31,477 nt of DNA from a bacterium (lineage in GTDB: Bacteria > Patescibacteriota > Minisyncoccia > Phycocordibacterales > CAIZLB01), in NCBI GenBank assembly GCA_043738715.1, contig JAYUFM010000097.1, forward strand, positions 1-31,477. Reading direction: 5' to 3'. Numbering within the stretch: position 1 is the stretch's first letter; every line of letters starts with the position of its first letter. The translations under genes were made by a program, and so were the position numbers. This document shows positions 8,360-28,160 of this stretch, one piece after another. The notes beneath the pieces are model-generated. The model saw only the letters and a list, made by a program, of their open reading frames with translations. It did no database searches and was not told the DNA's origin.

Positions 8360-9031
8360 ATGTCAAACGAAATTAAACTTGTTATAGGAATTATTATTGT
8401 ATCTATTGGGGTAACGTTTTTAGGTCTAAAATTAGCATATAGAGCCCCACAAGAGGCAAAATTACTATTATCTGCTGACCGCATTGATAATGCTGAAAGT
8501 CCACGACTTAAAGGGGCTAGCTCGACTATTTCAATAGTAGAATTCGCAGATTTTGAATGCCCTGCATGTGGAGCAATGCATCCGATATTTAAGCAGCTAT
8601 TAAAAGCTTACGGTAATAAAATCACTTTTGTTTATCGAAACTTCCCTATTCACGAAAACGCTGACCAGTTCGCTATCGCTGCTCTTGCTGCAGGAAAACA
8701 GAATAAATTCTGGGAAATGCACGATATGATGTTTGAAGGTCAATCAGAATGGTCAGATATATCATTTGACAAACAAATGGCTATATTTGCAGGATATGCT
8801 CAAAAATTAGGATTAGATATGAAAAAGTATCAGGCAGATCTTGCAGATAAACATCTAGCAGATATGGTAAAGAAAGACAAAGAGGATGCATTTGCTATGG
8901 GAATCAATGCCACACCTACAATCATTATTAACAATAACCGAGTAATTGTTGGTGGTAAAAATTACGCTGATTTAATAAAGATGATAGACGAAGAAATTGC
9001 TAAGGGTCCCCAGGTTGCTCCGAATAAATAA
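8360..9031 (+). CDS. DsbA-family thioredoxin-fold disulfide oxidoreductase, membrane-anchored
   Basis: EFADFECPAC CxxC, VYRNFPI, FWEMHD and GINATPT cis-Pro loop. Confidence 0.9.
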   Translation: MSNEIKLVIGIIIVSIGVTFLGLKLAYRAPQEAKLLLSADRIDNAESPRLKGASSTISIVEFADFECPACGAMHPIFKQLLKAYGNKITFVYRNFPIHENADQFAIAALAAGKQNKFWEMHDMMFEGQSEWSDISFDKQMAIFAGYAQKLGLDMKKYQADLADKHLADMVKKDKEDAFAMGINATPTIIINNNRVIVGGKNYADLIKMIDEEIAKGPQVAPNK

Positions 9032-9033
9032 GT

Positions 9034-9160
9034 CGGCTTCAAACGAAAAGATCCCGAGAGAACGGAATAGCCCCCTTAAAGAAATTTAAAAGGGGGGCTT
9101 TCCCTTGGCTCAACCCTTCGGGTTTCCGCCAGATCTCTCTTGATCTTTTGTTTTTCGCCG
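9034..9160 (-). repeat. Structured repeat element, copy A
   Basis: Reverse complement aligns with copies B and C; nested stems CGGC/GCCG, AAAAGATC/GATCTTTT and AACCC-GAA-GGGTT. Confidence 0.85.
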
Positions 9161-9177
9161 TAAGTATTCCAAAGTGT

Positions 9178-9321
9178 AGCTGGAAAAGTAAAAAGCCAGA
9201 GAGACTCGACGGAAGACCGTAAGGTCTGAGTCGGAGGAAAGTTTTTTTTAAAAGGTTTTTCCTTTAAAAAACTATTCCGCTCTCTCTGGCTTTTTAACTT
9301 TGGAGGCTCTGTGCCACAAAC
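9178..9321 (+). repeat. Structured repeat element, copy B, with 3' tail CTGTGCCACAAAC
   Basis: AAAAAGCCAGAGAGA/TCTCTCTGGCTTTTT stem, GAC-GGA-AGACC-GTAA-GGTCT-GA-GTC arm, GGA...TTCC-closed variable hairpin. Confidence 0.85.
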
Positions 9322-9336
9322 TATATTTAATATAAC

Positions 9337-11094
9337 CTAATGCGAAGCCACATCACTTTCCGACAACATACTATCAGTAACAATAGGGGCGGCTTCATTG
9401 CTAGCCTTTTTGTTTTCTGGTGCAACAACAACACCTGATCCGGCGAAGAATGGGATACGTTTTTTAAATGAACCCCACACTTCAATCACTTCTTCATTGC
9501 GAAGGAGAAACAGAACACCAGCCCAAGATGCAATCCCGACTACCCCACCTAATAGCCCGTGGATAAAGACACTGAAAACTTTTGTCTGATCGATAAATGG
9601 TTCAGCGAGGTTTAAAGTTATATACGCCATAAAACCTGCAATTACTGCTGACTCAAAACTTTGCCATAATGTTCGTCCAACATTTTTTGTAAACATTCCT
9701 TCTCCGAAATCTTTTTCAAAGACTATCCAGAAAATAATCATGTTAATAACTGTTCCTAACATGTAACCTAATGGCAACATTAAAACTTCCGTACCTGGAA
9801 TTCCTGAGACACGGAACAACCTCTCTACACCTTGTGCAAATGCAGGACTAGTTGCAAATAATTGCAAAAATAAATAAGGTAATGTGATAGTTAATACTGA
9901 CGAAAATAGATTGATAAATAAGGGTTTTATCGTCCTCCCAGCGGCATAATAAGCTCGGATAAATAATAATTCGAGGCTCTGCGCGGATAATGAAATAACA
10001 AACAGTGCGACTGATGCAGCTGTTAATCTTGTATCGTTCCAATTAAATGAACCCGATCCTAGAATTACACGAACAATTTGCGCACGCAAAATAATAAATA
10101 ACGCTGTGATTGGCAAAGACCAAAATAAAATGTGCCTTGTGGCGACTTGAACATGTTCAACGAATTCTTTTTTCTTCCCATTCACATAACACATTGATAA
10201 TAATGGAAATGCAGCTAAAGTGTAAGACACCCCAACAATTGCAAATGGAACTGACTGAAGGTTCGTCGCTAAACTAAAAATTGAAATCGAACCAGCCGTC
10301 AAAACCGAAGCAAACGATGTGATAAAAATAAGTTCAAGCTGACTGGCTGACAAAGTAATTGTGCGTGGAATTGATAGTGTCAGTATTTTAAGAAGTCTTT
10401 TGAAATCCCATTTGAAAGTAAAACGTGGCAATTGTCCCAGTGATCCTACATAAGGTGCCTGAACTGCGAAATGGAGAACTGCACCAAATACAACACCTGC
10501 AACAATTCCTTGCAAACCAAATTTTGGATATAAAAATACCGTTCCAAATATTATAGATAAGTTATAGAAAATTGGTGCAATAGCATAAATAAAAAACCTT
10601 TTGTTCATCTGTGTAATAACAGACAATAGGTTTGAAACACCTAAAAAGATTGGCTGTAATAATAAAATCCTCGACATTGATATTACTGTATTGATTTCTG
10701 ACACACCAAATCCCGGAAATAAATAATGCGCAATTTTAGGCATCAAGAAAAATAAAATAGTAGACACAACTGCCATCAAGCTAAGAAAGAAAGAAAACAG
10801 CTCGCTCATTAATTTTTTTACAGCTTCGCTACCCTTCTCGCTTGTTGCACTAAAAAATGGAATTAAAACTGCAACAGAAACAAGTGAAGCCAGTGTTGCA
10901 AACACAAAATCTGGTACTCGAAAAGATGCATAATAAAGATCAAGGGTAGGTCCAGCACCAAAAGAATTAGCTAACAATCTGTCTCGGAACAAGGCAAGTA
11001 TCTGCGACATCAAAGTAAAAAAACCGATCAAATACGCAGCGTGGTGGATTCCTGCTATCTCTTTCGAGACAAATTGAACAAGCTTTTTAACCAT
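9337..11094 (-). CDS. murJ: Lipid II flippase MurJ (MviN)
   Basis: LALFRDRLLANSFGAG..LDLYYASFRVPDF motif and many TM helices; start reassigned to MVKKLV (11094). Confidence 0.93.
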   Translation of the reverse strand: MVKKLVQFVSKEIAGIHHAAYLIGFFTLMSQILALFRDRLLANSFGAGPTLDLYYASFRVPDFVFATLASLVSVAVLIPFFSATSEKGSEAVKKLMSELFSFFLSLMAVVSTILFFLMPKIAHYLFPGFGVSEINTVISMSRILLLQPIFLGVSNLLSVITQMNKRFFIYAIAPIFYNLSIIFGTVFLYPKFGLQGIVAGVVFGAVLHFAVQAPYVGSLGQLPRFTFKWDFKRLLKILTLSIPRTITLSASQLELIFITSFASVLTAGSISIFSLATNLQSVPFAIVGVSYTLAAFPLLSMCYVNGKKKEFVEHVQVATRHILFWSLPITALFIILRAQIVRVILGSGSFNWNDTRLTAASVALFVISLSAQSLELLFIRAYYAAGRTIKPLFINLFSSVLTITLPYLFLQLFATSPAFAQGVERLFRVSGIPGTEVLMLPLGYMLGTVINMIIFWIVFEKDFGEGMFTKNVGRTLWQSFESAVIAGFMAYITLNLAEPFIDQTKVFSVFIHGLLGGVVGIASWAGVLFLLRNEEVIEVWGSFKKRIPFFAGSGVVVAPENKKASNEAAPIVTDSMLSESDVASH

Positions 11095-11122
11095 ATAATA
11101 TAAGAGTATATCGCAAAAACAA

Positions 11123-11151
11123 TAGACCCACAATGGTTTTTGTGTTATATT
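11123..11151 (+). promoter_or_regulatory. Putative rnpB promoter
   Basis: TAGACC-17-TATATT with extended TG, 7 nt before P1. Confidence 0.5.
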
Positions 11152-11157
11152 CACACC

Positions 11158-11568
11158 GGTTTTGCATCAGACAGTCGCCAATATGCACTTCGGTACATAT
11201 TGGAGGAAAGTCCGAACACTTTTTGTTGGGCTCGCACAAGCAGATCACATCCGTGATGTTCTAAAGCGAGCCCAACAAAAACAGGTAGCGGGTAACGCCC
11301 GTCCGGAGCAATCCGCGAGATGCGAGCAGTGACGTGTACATTCGAAAGTTTGTACAGTTCGACTTCGGTCGAATAATTCCACGATATATTGAAAGTGGAA
11401 GTGAAACGGCAAAACTCTTACCCGAGTGCAAGGCCGCGCTCAACAATATTTTCGAATAATGTTAGAGAGAGCCGCTCGAGTCCAACAGCAATGTTGGTCC
11501 CAGATAAATGACTGTCACCTTTCGGATCAAACCTTAAGGAACAGAATTCGGCTTATAGATGCAAAACC
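11158..11568 (+). ncRNA. rnpB: RNase P RNA
   Basis: GAGGAAAGTCC (11203-11213), ACAGAATTCGGCTTA (11541-11555), P1 GGTTTTGCATC/GATGCAAAACC, AGTGAAACGGCAAAACTC core. Confidence 0.96.
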
Positions 11569-11572
11569 AATT

Positions 11573-11605
11573 GAAAAACCCACAGCGATGTGGGTTTTTC
11601 TTTTT
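11573..11605 (+). terminator. rnpB terminator
   Basis: GAAAAACCCACA/TGTGGGTTTTTC stem followed by Ts. Confidence 0.85.
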
Positions 11606-11637
11606 ATAAAATATTTTTGATGCAAATTTTATATAAA

Positions 11638-11679
11638 CAAAAAAAACAAAAGCCTGGGGAAGCATGCGCAACCCCAGGC
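11638..11679 (-). terminator. Terminator of the 11718-12227 ORF
   Basis: GCCTGGGG/CCCCAGGC stem with a minus-strand T tract. Confidence 0.75.
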
Positions 11680-11717
11680 CCTTTCGTTTCAATTGATTTA
11701 ATCCCAACCTGGGTGTC

Positions 11718-12227
11718 CTACCCCACTCCTGCTGTGGCCCGGAGGACTTCTGCGTGCTGCAAGTCCTTGTCTTTGTGCCTACGGGCATCGAGGCATGCAA
11801 ACAGATGTGCTTCGGTGTAAACAGGGATGAAGACTCCCAGCACATGAGCACTGCATTCCTTTGCGATAAGGCTTGTGACACGAGCCAACCCTTTGACTGG
11901 AGCCTGCGTCACAATGGAGCCGTGGTCTGGGTCTCTCGTGCTCAACACGACAACGTCGCCTGCCCGTACGCAGAGATGTCCCTCATTCGCAAAGACGCCA
12001 TCCCTCAGTGCAAGTAACGCGATGACGCGCCCATAGCCCGCAGGCTTATGTTTGAGACCCATGATGAGCCCACCCCGCTGGATTTTGTTCACGTCTCGCA
12101 TCAGTTCTTGGTGGTGCACGCTTTTTTGATGCGCCTCATCCGGAGCCATCAAGGCCATGAGCCCTTCAGTATCTCCGACGATTTGGGCATAGTTCGCCCA
12201 GAAGTTACGCCATTCTCTCTCGTTCAT
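11718..12227 (-). CDS. Orphan hypothetical protein, 169 aa
   Basis: ATG after an A/C-rich leader, GC-richer than its flanks, own terminator. Confidence 0.65.
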   Translation of the reverse strand: MNEREWRNFWANYAQIVGDTEGLMALMAPDEAHQKSVHHQELMRDVNKIQRGGLIMGLKHKPAGYGRVIALLALRDGVFANEGHLCVRAGDVVVLSTRDPDHGSIVTQAPVKGLARVTSLIAKECSAHVLGVFIPVYTEAHLFACLDARRHKDKDLQHAEVLRATAGVG

Positions 12228-12338
12228 GATTCTTTTTTTGTTTTTTGTATGGTCATTTCTGACCAGGTTTGTTCATTTACTCAAAAACATACTACTTCAT
12301 CTGTCAATAAACACAATTCAACTCAACATTCAATCTTT

Positions 12339-12535
12339 CGGCGGAGAACAAAAGGTCTAGAGATATCTGACGGAGGAAACCGTAAGGTTTCCGAGTCAAA
12401 GGAAAAGTCCTTCATTTTGAGTTTTCAAATGAAGGACTTATTCCGGTATCTATAGAACTTTTCGTTCGTAGCCATTCTCTCTGGCTTTTTAACTTTGTAG
12501 GCGCTGTGCCACTAAACCTTTTCGTTCGTAGCCGC
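12339..12535 (+). repeat. Structured repeat element copy C (12339-12473), a B-type 3' fragment (12474-12517) and a duplicated copy-C end (12518-12535)
   Basis: GAC-GGA-GGAAACC-GTAA-GGTTTCC-GA-GTC arm; 16-bp direct repeat CTTTTCGTTCGTAGCC at 12458 and 12518. Confidence 0.85.
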
Positions 12536-14638
12536 CTACTTAACCGCCTCTACCTTTGCACTAATCACCGCAAGGTCTTCGATTTCACAATTACCACCAG
12601 CACATGCCAACTCTTTCTTTACATCTGTATTATCTGTCTTTTCGTAAATAACAATCTTTGAGAAATCTAAACCTTCGTATTTTCTCATCAACTCAACATA
12701 AGTCTTTTCATCACATTCCTCATAAGGAGCTAATTGATACACATGATTTGATCGAGGTAGGAATGAAAGACCACCAGAGATATCCCAGTTCTGGTAAATC
12801 CAGTTACCTACTTCTAACCATTCATCGTCTCCAACTGAAATTGTGACTGATGGATTGTGTTCTGTGAAATTTTCTTTAACCATTTTCCAGAATACCAATT
12901 GTTCAATTGCACTCATGTCATCCTTGAAAATTGATCCCTTAGGAGCCTTAACAGGGAAATCAATTACGAAAGTCGTAGCGTTTTCAACAGTCTGACCAAC
13001 TTCTGGATGATATGGAACACCTTGATCCTTCATCATTTGGAACAATGCATCATTCGCAGAGATTCTCACACGTCGGATATAGAACTGTGAATGTCTTGGG
13101 TGCATACCTGATGAACAATCTACAGTCTGCGAAAGGTTACCTGATGGCTTAACACATGTAATCGCAGTCGAAGCATTAACACCGAATCGCTTTGCATACA
13201 ATTTATTTACACGAATGGCTTCGTCACGTAGTTTTCTCAAAACCTCAGGCTTTCGAACTTCTGGACAATCCCACATACCTGTAATTGATACACCCAAAAG
13301 TCTTTCTTCCATACAGTTCTTTTTCCATTCTGGTGAAAGATAGATGAAATCAGTAAATGTTGATTGATAAGTTCCTAAAATAGTAGCGACCTTTATCTTT
13401 CTCATAAGGTCTGCCAATTTGTCTTCATGTCGCGCAACAACCTCTGAAAGGTTACAGAACTGCTTTGGACGCAAAATAATTTCTCCACATGGATTAGTTC
13501 CAAATCGGTGCATCCAAGCCTTTGAAACAGCAAGACGTCTTGCAGGAAGAGTCTTTGCAAGGCAACCTCGGTTGAAAATACCTCTTTCTCCTGACTTACT
13601 CTTTATAAGGGCTGTCCATTCATCTAGGAACTCAGTTAATTCCGGCTTTTCATTGTATACAGCGGAATTATTTGAAAGTGATCGCTGTGGCTCGTTAATC
13701 CAGAACTGGCCTTTCTTTGCATCACGGATCTGGTCATCTTGTAGATCAGACAATGAAATAAGGGCTGTTCGGCGAACACCTCCTGAAACTACACCTTCAC
13801 CGATTTTACAAACAATATCGTGAACATCCAGGTTGGAAAGGTGCTTACCTTGTTTCGAAAGAATCTTTGAACGAGAAAAATTATGAATATCAACTAGAGG
13901 GGCAGGACCCGACGATCTACCACCTGTTGTCTTTAATCTTGCGCCAGCAGGTCGAAGCAATGAATAATCAAATTCCACATCATCACCTTCAAACCAATGT
14001 TTCAAACCGATTGCTAATGAATCTGACCAACCCTCTCTTGAATCTGGAATAACAAATTTATGTTTTTTACCAGTTTGGAATTTAATTTGAGGAAGTGACT
14101 GACTGTTATAACTTTCTGCAGAAAATCCAACACCACATCCTGACATTGAAAGAAACATAATTTCAGCAAAGTCCTGATATGTTTCAGGTGCAGTAAATGA
14201 ACAATTATAAGTTGAAGCGTGATTTCGTCGAAGTGCTTCACCAGAAAATTGTAGCGCACGCATTGATGGCATTGATTCGTGCATCAAGATTGATTTGCGA
14301 ACTTCAGAATATTCTTTTTCTGTTAGTTTATTTCCCAATCTTTCTTTCATGAAGTTAACATAACGGTCTACCGTTTCAACCCATGTCTCTCGACGAGATT
14401 CTTCTTCTATCCATCGTGAGTACGTTCTATAGTAAATAAATTCACCTAATGGATTTCGGAAACTCTTTTTTGATTCTGCAGCAAGTTTTTTTACATTTTC
14501 AGGAACAGCAATGTCTCTTTTTACACGTTCTTTATTTCTAGCAGCTCGGTACAAAATATATTCTTTCGCAGTTTTTACATATTCAGATAAAATTAATTGT
14601 TTTTCTACAATATCCTGAATTCCTTCAACGTCAGGCAT
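12536..14638 (-). CDS. nrdJ: Class II (adenosylcobalamin-dependent) ribonucleotide reductase, catalytic part
   Basis: YYRTYSRW..RRETW.ETVDRY, NCSF, GGVRRTALISL, TNPCGEI, TCVKPSG and C-terminal CAGGNC motifs. Confidence 0.92.
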   Translation of the reverse strand: MPDVEGIQDIVEKQLILSEYVKTAKEYILYRAARNKERVKRDIAVPENVKKLAAESKKSFRNPLGEFIYYRTYSRWIEEESRRETWVETVDRYVNFMKERLGNKLTEKEYSEVRKSILMHESMPSMRALQFSGEALRRNHASTYNCSFTAPETYQDFAEIMFLSMSGCGVGFSAESYNSQSLPQIKFQTGKKHKFVIPDSREGWSDSLAIGLKHWFEGDDVEFDYSLLRPAGARLKTTGGRSSGPAPLVDIHNFSRSKILSKQGKHLSNLDVHDIVCKIGEGVVSGGVRRTALISLSDLQDDQIRDAKKGQFWINEPQRSLSNNSAVYNEKPELTEFLDEWTALIKSKSGERGIFNRGCLAKTLPARRLAVSKAWMHRFGTNPCGEIILRPKQFCNLSEVVARHEDKLADLMRKIKVATILGTYQSTFTDFIYLSPEWKKNCMEERLLGVSITGMWDCPEVRKPEVLRKLRDEAIRVNKLYAKRFGVNASTAITCVKPSGNLSQTVDCSSGMHPRHSQFYIRRVRISANDALFQMMKDQGVPYHPEVGQTVENATTFVIDFPVKAPKGSIFKDDMSAIEQLVFWKMVKENFTEHNPSVTISVGDDEWLEVGNWIYQNWDISGGLSFLPRSNHVYQLAPYEECDEKTYVELMRKYEGLDFSKIVIYEKTDNTDVKKELACAGGNCEIEDLAVISAKVEAVK

Positions 14639-14859
14639 AAAATATTTAAATTTTTAGCAATTCGCAAAAGCTCATTGTGTACATTATGTGCTACATCGCG
14701 GGCTTCTTCGGCAGAACCTTCACCTGTAATTGACATTGCCTTTGTTATTGCACTTACGATCTTTTCTTTATCGTAAATTACAATTTCACCATTTCTTTTA
14801 TGAATTCTTTTGATAACTTCTTTCTCTTTTTCCCCTGATGTTTTCTTTGCTGGTGCCAT
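14605..14859 (-). CDS. nrdJ: N-terminal ATP-cone segment of NrdJ, out of frame with the catalytic ORF
   Basis: IHKRNGEIVIYDKEKIVSAITKAM ATP-cone start; a -1 shift at 14647-14653 joins it to MPDVEGIQDIVEKQLI. Confidence 0.85.
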   Translation of the reverse strand: MAPAKKTSGEKEKEVIKRIHKRNGEIVIYDKEKIVSAITKAMSITGEGSAEEARDVAHNVHNELLRIAKNLNILCLTLKEFRIL

Positions 14860-14967
14860 ATAGAACTATAATTATTTTCTTATAAATTTGTAATAAATTT
14901 TTACTGATTTCGTGTAAAAATTGCGATTGCCTAACCATTGTAGTCCTTAAAAAAGATGTTGAATACC

Positions 14968-14976
14968 TGTGGATAA
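14968..14976 (-). promoter_or_regulatory. Consensus DnaA box upstream of nrdJ
   Basis: TGTGGATAA (= TTATCCACA on the minus strand) about 110 nt upstream of the nrdJ start. Confidence 0.5.
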
Positions 14977-15052
14977 GTACCTCAATACAACAGAGAAAGT
15001 CTGTAAAGAGCCGATCCCAAAAAGCTATCTATTCAGTCACCTTTTGAACCCT

Positions 15053-15577
15053 TTAAAAAGCAAAATTTGCTGTATCCCCTATTTTTATGTTCTTAGATTT
15101 AACCTGACCTTTGGAAATTTCAAGCACATACGAGACTTCACCCGGAGATTCGTATATTTTAGGAAAGTCTTCCGGCTTTGCTCCCTCAACATATCCTGTT
15201 ATTTTTTTGTTTTGATCCATCCACACAATGTCTATTGGAAAATTCATATCTTTCATCCAAAATCCTTCTATTGATGGTTCAGAAAAAACAAACAACATTC
15301 CAGTATCAACATTTAATTTATCGTCAAGAGACTTTCTACCACCTAAACCTAATATTTTTTCTTCATCCGTACTAGCAATTTCCACTAAAAAATAATTTTT
15401 ATTAATTACAAGCCTAGTTGTTGGCATTTTTACAACAGTGTTCACAGAATTATTTACCGTACGAACGTTTGGTTTTCTAAATAAGGAGACCGAAAATGGA
15501 AACAATAACACTGCGCAACAAAAAACAACCGCGGGAATTAAAAATATTTTATTTATTTTCTCCTTCTTTTTTATCAT
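15053..15577 (-). CDS. DUF192 family protein
   Basis: VEIAST.EEKILGLGGR, GMLFVF, FWMKDMNFPIDIVW and YVLEI motifs; N-terminal TM helix. Confidence 0.88.
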   Translation of the reverse strand: MIKKKEKINKIFLIPAVVFCCAVLLFPFSVSLFRKPNVRTVNNSVNTVVKMPTTRLVINKNYFLVEIASTDEEKILGLGGRKSLDDKLNVDTGMLFVFSEPSIEGFWMKDMNFPIDIVWMDQNKKITGYVEGAKPEDFPKIYESPGEVSYVLEISKGQVKSKNIKIGDTANFAF

Positions 15578-27920: not shown

Positions 27921-28005
27921 GCTCGGGTGGTGAAATGGTAGACACGGAGGACTTAAAATCCTCTGACCTTTAAAAGTCGTGTGGGTTCGAGTCCCACCCC
28001 GAGCA
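27921..28005 (+). tRNA. tRNA-Leu (TAA)
   Basis: Acceptor stem GCTCGGG/CCCGAGC, anticodon arm GAGGA-CTTAAAA-TCCTC, long variable arm. Confidence 0.96.
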
Positions 28006-28085
28006 CAACGCAGTGAGATAGACTGATATGGCTCAACAAGGTCATTTTATGGAAAAATAAATGACCGAAGTAGGGCGACCGAGAT

Positions 28086-28119
28086 GGTTCGAGTATCATT
28101 TCGGGCACAACGCAGTGAG
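28086..28119 (+). repeat. Degenerate direct repeat of the tRNA-Leu 3' end and trailer (att-like scar)
   Basis: 28 of 34 nt identical to 27984-28017 by manual alignment. Confidence 0.75.
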
Positions 28120-28160
28120 GCCTACTGGGAGGGCAGAATAGAAACCTATTTCGATATGTT

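Follow-up and report, generated by a model that had tools for sequence, protein, structure and literature searches.

A palindromic repeat at gene ends of a candidate phyla radiation bacterium and the possible origin of a 60-nt insertion behind nrdJ

The sequence behind nrdJ raises the question of how part of one palindromic repeat came to lie within the terminal arm of another, and whether this is the nested insertion of a mobile element that the original prediction proposed. The window, that is, the whole stretch of DNA analysed here (31,477 nt), is one entire contig, the longest of the 169 contigs of its source MAG (G000; 826 kb, 79% complete). Parcubacteria have genomes of less than 1 Mb with spacers of a few bases; here a folded repeat of 130 nt occurs in at least 17 copies, placed behind genes. 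Two subfamilies of this repeat, referred to as the A/C-type and the B-type, meet at the nrdJ locus. The features on which the following account depends are these:

9034-9160, minus strand: copy A, A/C-type, starting 2 nt past the dsbA TAA
9178-9321, plus strand: copy B, B-type with a 14-nt tail, the tail end lying 15 nt short of the murJ TAG
11718-12227, minus strand: 169-aa ORF (ORF169), co-directional with and downstream of nrdJ, without a Pfam match
12339-12473, plus strand: copy C, a full-length A/C-type element scoring 128.7 bits with the R1 covariance model
12339-12367, 12368-12444 and 12445-12473, plus strand: the 5' arm, three-way-junction core and 3' arm of copy C
12458-12473, plus strand: inner 16-bp repeat, formed by the end of the 3' arm of copy C itself (T-tract and extension)
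12474-12517, plus strand: orphan B-type fragment (3' strand of the B-type stem, T-tract, outer arm and 14-nt tail)
12497-12503, plus strand: heptamer within the B-type fragment, the exact reverse complement of the stop-spanning 12533-12539
12518-12533, plus strand: outer 16-bp repeat, with which (together with 12534-12536) the 5' arm preferentially pairs on the model strand
12534-12538, minus strand: GCC closure (12534-12536) and nrdJ TAG (12536-12538), with one base in common
12536-14638, minus strand: nrdJ-like ORF with the class II ribonucleotide reductase domains of Pfam

The composite anatomy behind nrdJ was confirmed as first described. A perfect 16-bp direct repeat (12458-12473 and 12518-12533, plus strand) brackets the 44-nt piece, which matches the 3' arm and tail of copy B with 93% identity over 40 nt (12476-12515 against 9281-9320). 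The 16-mer occurs exactly twice on the plus strand of the window, and a copy with two mismatches lies on the minus strand at 9035-9050, within copy A; allowing up to three mismatches, 0.22 matches are expected per dinucleotide shuffle, and three matches were reached in none of 100 shuffles. The mirror arrangement that had been noted between this locus and copy A at the dsbA TAA is real. It had also been stated that the outer repeat restores the element's terminus at the nrdJ TAG. The long stem is indeed closed by the outer 16-mer together with the GCC that follows it (12534-12536), but this GCC overlaps the TAG by one base, the last base of the closure being the complement of the G in the stop codon. 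When 12474-12533 is removed in silico, a canonical element is left whose 5-bp G+C helix closure abuts the nrdJ stop.

The stretch 12339-12536 consists of a full A/C-type copy, a fragment of a B-type 3' arm and an arm end that has been copied again. The 44-nt piece is a half-arm only: it comprises one arm, lacks the core and starts exactly at the boundary between core and stem, and no B-type 5' arm was found near it. The plus strand is the best-folding strand of copy C and is antisense to nrdJ. When 12336-12540 is folded to its free-energy minimum, it is the outer and not the inner 16-mer that pairs with the 5' arm. On the nrdJ-sense strand, the fragment tail and the outer repeat are predicted to form a hairpin of -20.3 kcal/mol that buries the TAG, so that the two strands of the composite locus are predicted to fold differently. 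Copy B differs from the heptamer of the fragment at two of its seven bases.

The C-terminus of NrdJ has the same length and ends at the same residue position as in nine relatives, and the element therefore did not alter the protein. Nine related, more distant nrdJ loci carry a plain terminator (A-run, stem and T-run) after the gene, which indicates that the element at nrdJ occupies the usual terminator position. Between the element's 5' end (12339) and the start of ORF169 there are 111 nt. The element was absent from all 80 nrdJ loci checked (nine from genomes and 71 from a metagenome scan with NrdJ, the best of which is only 67% identical and permits no strain-level comparison), and none of the collections searched held an allele of the locus without the duplication. 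No nrdJ was found in the four same-genus genomes searched. The region that extends from rnpB to the next conserved gene, and to which the nrdJ/ORF169 segment belongs, is variable, so that the locus has no orthologous empty site.

Several further observations concern this neighbourhood. In place of about 11600-15050 of the window (ORF169, element and nrdJ), the same-genus genomes G004 and G002 carry about 4 kb of other sequence, bounded by rnpB on one side and by the orthologue of the ORF at 15053-15577 on the other. The ATP-cone domain of nrdJ is split between a separate 84-aa ORF (14605-14859) and the first residues of the main ORF. The RNase P RNA (class A, 11159-11571) barely reaches its Rfam gathering threshold, with a score of 100.3 against 100; it measures 413 nt compared with 367 model positions, and it is conserved and adjoins murJ in the same-genus genomes.

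Copies of the repeat were found with nhmmer and the covariance model R1, which was built in this analysis; together they gave 17 copies on 11 contigs of G000. The element is palindromic, about 130 nt long and forms a three-way junction, in which a shared core of about 77 nt, comprising two hairpins and conserved purine-rich joints, is closed by a long outer stem. Compensatory double changes were observed at 29 of the 41 predicted pairs in an alignment of 16 copies. In nine copies the outer stem is unique and stands between an A-run and a T-run, as in a bidirectional terminator; the other eight form the two subfamilies, in which arms of about 29 nt are common to several loci (six A/C-type copies and two intact B-type copies). 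The arms of these eight pair with one another, i.e. terminal inverted repeats are present.

Among 40 relatives, ten carry between one and six copies according to R1, and none was detected among 150 genomes sampled evenly from the class, with only 22 candidates scored per genome. A scan of species genomes for the core pattern returned eight loci, all in MAGs; R1 confirmed six of them, all labelled Candidatus Parcubacteria or Candidatus Saccharibacteria, and one of the six is the relative G013, which makes G000 a member of the Parcubacteria group. Two loci in MAGs labelled Candidatus Saccharibacteria (L112 and L117) scored 79.5 and 72.8 bits against the G000 model, above most copies from G000's own family, which suggests transfer between lineages or loose labelling of MAGs. 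Rfam gave nothing in the window at the gathering threshold and only chance-level matches at E up to 10 over 8900-12700, and no description of the element was found in the literature searched on structured RNAs of the candidate phyla radiation and on terminator-associated miniature elements. A universal housekeeping RNA was rejected on the absence of matches in the 150 genomes together with the presence and absence of the element between same-genus genomes.

Comparison with same-genus genomes shows what the sites look like when empty. The stops of dsbA and murJ are 2-3 nt apart in G002 and G003 and 305 nt apart in G000, where copies A and B lie head-to-head between them; copy B is also the closest relative of the orphan fragment at nrdJ. 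Behind ftsZ, the spacer measures 26 nt in G001 and plain terminators are found in G002 and G003; in G000 the gene is followed by one base, an A/C-type copy, part of a B-type copy and then the same promoter-like sequence. At three other loci (C53, C123 and C140c) the same-genus relatives have plain terminators, and at C53 the terminator of G004 shares its A-run, T-run and stem base with the element-bearing hairpin of G000. The convergent-gene spacer of C140c (G000:C140:7050-7189) carries a plain terminator in three other genomes of the genus; in G004 it carries an element (L147, G004:C8) that is reversed and has a different stem and core, from which it appears that this spacer was hit independently. 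The empty sites sought by the original prediction were thus seen at dsbA/murJ and at ftsZ and not at nrdJ itself, and these sequence comparisons show that, relative to its same-genus genomes, G000 has gained elements. The two ends of copy A each directly adjoin the 5-bp sequence TAAGT (9029-9033 and 9161-9165), the left one containing the dsbA TAA; this direct repeat, seen at no other copy, could be a target duplication.

The original prediction further held that the element favours sites right after stop codons. Tabulating the distances from element end to gene end showed one and the same polarity in G000 (at least 10 of 14 informative copies) and in relatives (19 of 21 copies). In the former, the model-3' end faces the stop of the gene on the opposite strand, often 0-3 nt away; in the latter it faces the upstream gene end, and 11 copies lie within -7 to +10 nt. 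Read on the gene strand, the order is gene end, reverse complement of the element, spacer and usually the next co-directional gene. The same end thus lies within about 10 nt of the upstream gene end in most copies, but these gene ends include those of tRNAs: tRNA 3' ends on the opposite strand adjoin 7 of the 21 copies in relatives at 0 to 54 nt (L025, L026, L027, L033, L113, L028 and L119), four of them abutting or within 9 nt. Because of these seven copies, the placement rule is one of the gene 3' end, protein or tRNA, and not of the stop codon as such. The element at L033 is situated between two co-directional tRNA genes.

A stop-codon target is not needed for such placement, as tiny spacers and terminator replacement can explain it. 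Given the tiny spacers at the empty sites, nearly all other positions would be damaging to a gene or a promoter; the placement of pneumococcal repeats has likewise been ascribed to tolerance of insertions downstream of genes (PMC3049150). Terminator-like traits are seen both in the A-run and T-run flanks of the unique-stem copies and in the plain terminators at the relatives' orthologous sites. On the sequences compared, the repeat is mobile and modular in its behaviour: it takes the place of putative terminator hairpins or provides them, and it keeps a fixed polarity to the upstream gene.

That the subfamilies insert into or recombine with each other, as was first proposed, is borne out in so far as A/C-type and B-type pieces are joined at three loci: nrdJ (contig C97), C140:611-804 and C6:1526-1717. 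At C140 a B-type 5' arm is succeeded by a full A/C-type copy and a B-type 3' arm, the B arm starting directly after a TAA. At C6 a full A/C-type copy, which ends one base before the ftsZ TAA, is preceded by a B-type 5' arm with the initial portion of a B core, and at nrdJ the order is full A/C-type copy, B-type 3' arm with tail, and the 16-mer again. The junction from the A/C-type 3' end to the B-type 3' arm falls at the identical position in C140 and at nrdJ, and the orphan fragment aligns in register with the B-type 3' arm behind the A/C-type copy at C140. All six A/C-type copies lie near B-type sequence, five within 25 nt and one within 1.7 kb. The reading of the 16-bp repeat as a target-site duplication, on the other hand, could not be established.

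A second solo 16-mer, identical to that of nrdJ, was found on C108 between a diverged copy and the TAG of a 340-aa ORF, overlapping the TAG by one base; the part of this ORF that was tested has no Pfam match. The remaining candidates for solo 16-mers, with two to three mismatches, fall inside coding regions at about the chance rate and were rejected. In the relative G036, four solo arms of another subfamily follow one another in tandem, and a half copy is also present. Modularity of the BIME and BOX kind, with modules solo, in tandem and in varied combinations, is therefore a property of this family, as judged from the three mosaics, the solo 16-mers at two stop codons and the tandem arms and half copy of G036. 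The nested copy is real, and it is good evidence of recombination between copies. The nrdJ locus provides direct evidence of the exchange of parts between copies, and hence of a source of local rearrangement in streamlined genomes.

For the origin of the 60 nt we prefer, with only middling confidence, a templated insertion between paralogous copies to a transposase-made nesting, the whole of 12339-12536 then being a composite of a non-autonomous palindromic repeat in terminator position. A resident A/C-type copy would once have been flush with the nrdJ stop, and the 60 nt would have entered its gene-proximal arm by templated insertion. A B-type paralogue, either copy B at a distance of 3.2 kb or a sequence close to it, would have supplied the template for 44 of these (its 3' arm and tail), and the remaining 16 nt would be a repeated copy of the last 16 nt of the resident arm. 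The process most likely began with a stall or a break at the foot of the long hairpin, after which synthesis may have been primed on the paralogous copy and then have rejoined the original arm, i.e. ectopic template switching or break repair. The same process could have produced the solo 16-mer on C108, the mosaics of A/C-type in B-type sequence at C140 and C6 and the tandem solo arms of G036. The complementarity of the heptamer and the stop region, a change typical of template switching in quasi-palindromes, may be a hint of the same mechanism.

Templated insertion is favoured because the insert is a half-arm, because full copies show no duplication of about 16 bp and because four families of possible mobilisers were not found. 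Across the 17 full copies there is no consistent or significant flanking duplication and none near 16 bp; the only flush repeats among them are TAAGT at copy A and TAAT at C108b. No genes for Y1/RAYT (Y1_Tnp), reverse transcriptase (RVT_1), TnpB or IS110 were detected in G000, which is 79% complete, so that a mobiliser may be unassembled. Mobilisation by RAYT, IS200/IS605, a retroelement or IS110 was accordingly rejected for the genome as searched. In the relatives, Y1_Tnp (PF01797) is present in two of the ten that bear the element (G035 and G036) and in 10 of the 30 that do not. Against templated insertion it must be said that a staggered-cut insertion would also leave a 16-bp flanking duplication, and that a donor with the exact junctions was not found. 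Some transposase-like events may also have taken place, given the flush 5-bp repeat of copy A.

True nested transposition, in which a 5'-truncated B-type copy (its last 44 nt) would have entered the terminal arm of copy C with a 16-bp target-site duplication, is an unlikely alternative. In its favour, the perfect 16-bp repeat exactly flanks the foreign piece, the piece ends at the tail terminus common to copy B and C140b, and flush repeats, TAAGT and TAAT, flank copy A and C108b. The insert, however, lacks a core and possesses only one element end, no duplication of about 16 bp was seen at any of the 17 full copies, and the four transposase families suited to hairpin repeats were not found in G000. 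Moreover, 16 bp exceeds the target duplications of most bacterial transposases.

Mobilisation by alternate ends ranks below nested transposition and is improbable in our estimation. Here a B element with an A/C-type copy nested inside it would offer four usable ends, and a unit spanning 12339-12517, from the A/C-type 5' end to the B-type 3' tail, would have moved as a whole and landed beside the stump of an older A/C-type copy, now the outer 16-mer. The full nest at C140, the B-type 5' arm and partial core with A/C-type copy at C6 and the A/C-type copy with B-type 3' arm at C97 would be three outcomes of such a process. The identical junction in C140 and C97, the 96% identity between the A/C-type parts of C6 and C97 and the solo 16-mer on C108, between a different copy and a stop codon, agree with it as well. 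It nevertheless requires an older copy to have been cut down to exactly 16 nt at two loci and has no known mobilising enzyme, and with only some 80% identity between the A/C-type part of C140 and those of C6 and C97, it is doubtful that all three descend from one recent composite.

An assembly artefact, in which the 60 extra bases would stem from short reads of several near-identical repeats, is very unlikely. The MAG is fragmented into 169 contigs and related copies have long identical stretches in common, both of which would favour such an error. A 16-bp repeat is, however, shorter than the k-mers that assemblers normally use, and the locus lies in the middle of the longest contig (31 kb); on these two grounds misassembly is not expected. 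The fragment is also identical to no other assembled copy, being 93% identical to copy B, and was thus not simply copied from another locus, and comparable mosaics are present on three other contigs and in another genome. Least probable of all is a selected regulatory device, in which alternative partners of the 5' arm or a stop-burying hairpin would switch nrdJ termination or downstream expression: the strands are predicted to fold differently, the model strand uses the outer repeat and the -20.3 kcal/mol nrdJ-sense hairpin over the TAG was made by two substitutions relative to copy B, but the arrangement is confined to a single locus without conservation, no nrdJ relative has anything similar and the pieces are plainly fragments of repeats present elsewhere in the genome.

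Whichever way the 60 nt arose, textbook miniature elements leave two features of the family unexplained, namely the polarity to the upstream gene or tRNA and the fold on the strand which that gene does not transcribe. The model strand runs antisense to the upstream gene or tRNA. Its fold is more stable than that of the complement in 20 of the 21 copies in relatives (by a mean of 9.1 kcal/mol) and in 15 of the 17 in G000. Model-free minimum-free-energy folds contain 69 G-U pairs on the model strand compared with 13 on the complement, and model-fitted alignments give ratios of 31:3 and 13:3 in the same direction; conserved tandem G-A mismatches and GNRA-type loops are also located on the model strand. 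No promoter-like site was found at a consistent distance upstream on the folded strand. A stand-alone small RNA gene with its own promoter was rejected on this ground and because the 5' ends of head-to-head copies are only 17-22 nt apart.

The target of selection may be either an antisense RNA or a folded single strand of DNA. The original prediction had set mobility against a single-copy non-coding RNA. Mobility is supported by the multiple copies and by their gain relative to same-genus genomes, but multi-copy mobility does not exclude a strand-specific folded role as RNA or DNA, and the fold is strongly strand-biased. By analogy with attC and with single-strand phage attachment sites, one may speculate that the family is a polar, gene-end-seeking element that acts via one folded single strand. 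A host recombinase or the replication machinery would act on its antisense strand, and single-strand exchanges that were aborted or repeated would have left the tandem arm fragments at nrdJ. We consider this a long shot. If true, bacteria of the candidate phyla radiation would have a recombination system that replaces terminators and does without cassettes. A single-strand mechanism would mean movement of DNA without a dedicated transposase; otherwise the locus is an ordinary mosaic of interspersed repeats.

Among known repeats, the REP/BIME/REPIN sequences of proteobacteria, which are mobilised by RAYT, a Y1 HUH transposase, are alike in many respects. They are short extragenic palindromes found solo, in tandem, as inverted doublets and in mosaics; they are intergenic, lie near 3' ends and are present or absent between relatives. 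They also form head-to-head doublets between convergent genes, as copies A and B and C140a and C140b do here. The element differs from them by its conserved three-way-junction core of about 77 nt and its strict polarity to the upstream gene end, and from REP/REPIN-RAYT systems in that Y1_Tnp is not present in G000 and that the presence of the gene does not track the element in the 40 relatives.

ERIC (IRU) sequences of enterobacteria are imperfect palindromes of about 127 bp, transcribed and intergenic, with internal or terminal extra pieces and a patchy occurrence; to our knowledge they have no known transposase. The element resembles them in length, in its long imperfect palindrome, in its variant pieces and in its patchy distribution, but differs in sequence, in having a branched core where ERIC has a simple hairpin, in its flush placement at gene ends and in phylum. 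The Correia (NEMIS) elements of Neisseria are hairpins of 100-155 bp with long terminal inverted repeats, are co-transcribed and can terminate transcription; their TA target duplication and simple hairpin are both absent from the present element. The terminal inverted repeats of a classical MITE are present here, whereas a fixed-length target-site duplication at every copy is not.

In Streptococcus pneumoniae, SPRITE repeats are terminator-like, have A-run and T-run ends and are enriched close to the 3' ends of coding sequences, and BOX repeats are modular, the number of modules varying and modules also occurring alone (PMC3049150). The element is set apart from SPRITE, BOX and RUP by its covarying three-way-junction core, the structure on the antisense strand and the copies at tRNA 3' ends.

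It shares its polarity at the gene end and the antisense-strand fold with the attC sites of integrons. An attC follows or overlaps the stop of the upstream ORF in fixed orientation and is an imperfect palindrome with conserved mismatches that folds on the bottom strand. The RYYYAAC and GTTRRRY core sites are nevertheless missing, as the arms of the element end in GAAC and GTTC with flanking bases off consensus, and its copies are scattered on 11 contigs in both orientations behind housekeeping genes and tRNAs. The interspersed, palindromic and modular character and the terminator-side habit are thus shared with REP/BIME/REPIN, ERIC, SPRITE/BOX and Correia, while the branched core, flush polar placement, antisense fold and lack of a RAYT are distinct.

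Two further repeats were observed in the course of this survey. A second, simpler palindrome family, consisting of GGACAC, a spacer of 3-5 bases and GTGTCC, is intergenic in several relatives, e.g. at L156-L158 (G036) and L147-L150 (G001-G004), sometimes beside the elements described here. In the window itself, the 3' end of a tRNA gene and about 25 nt downstream of it (27984-28032) are repeated 102 nt further on (28086-28134) with 73% identity, and a tRNA end duplicated in this way is the kind of trace that an integrated element leaves.
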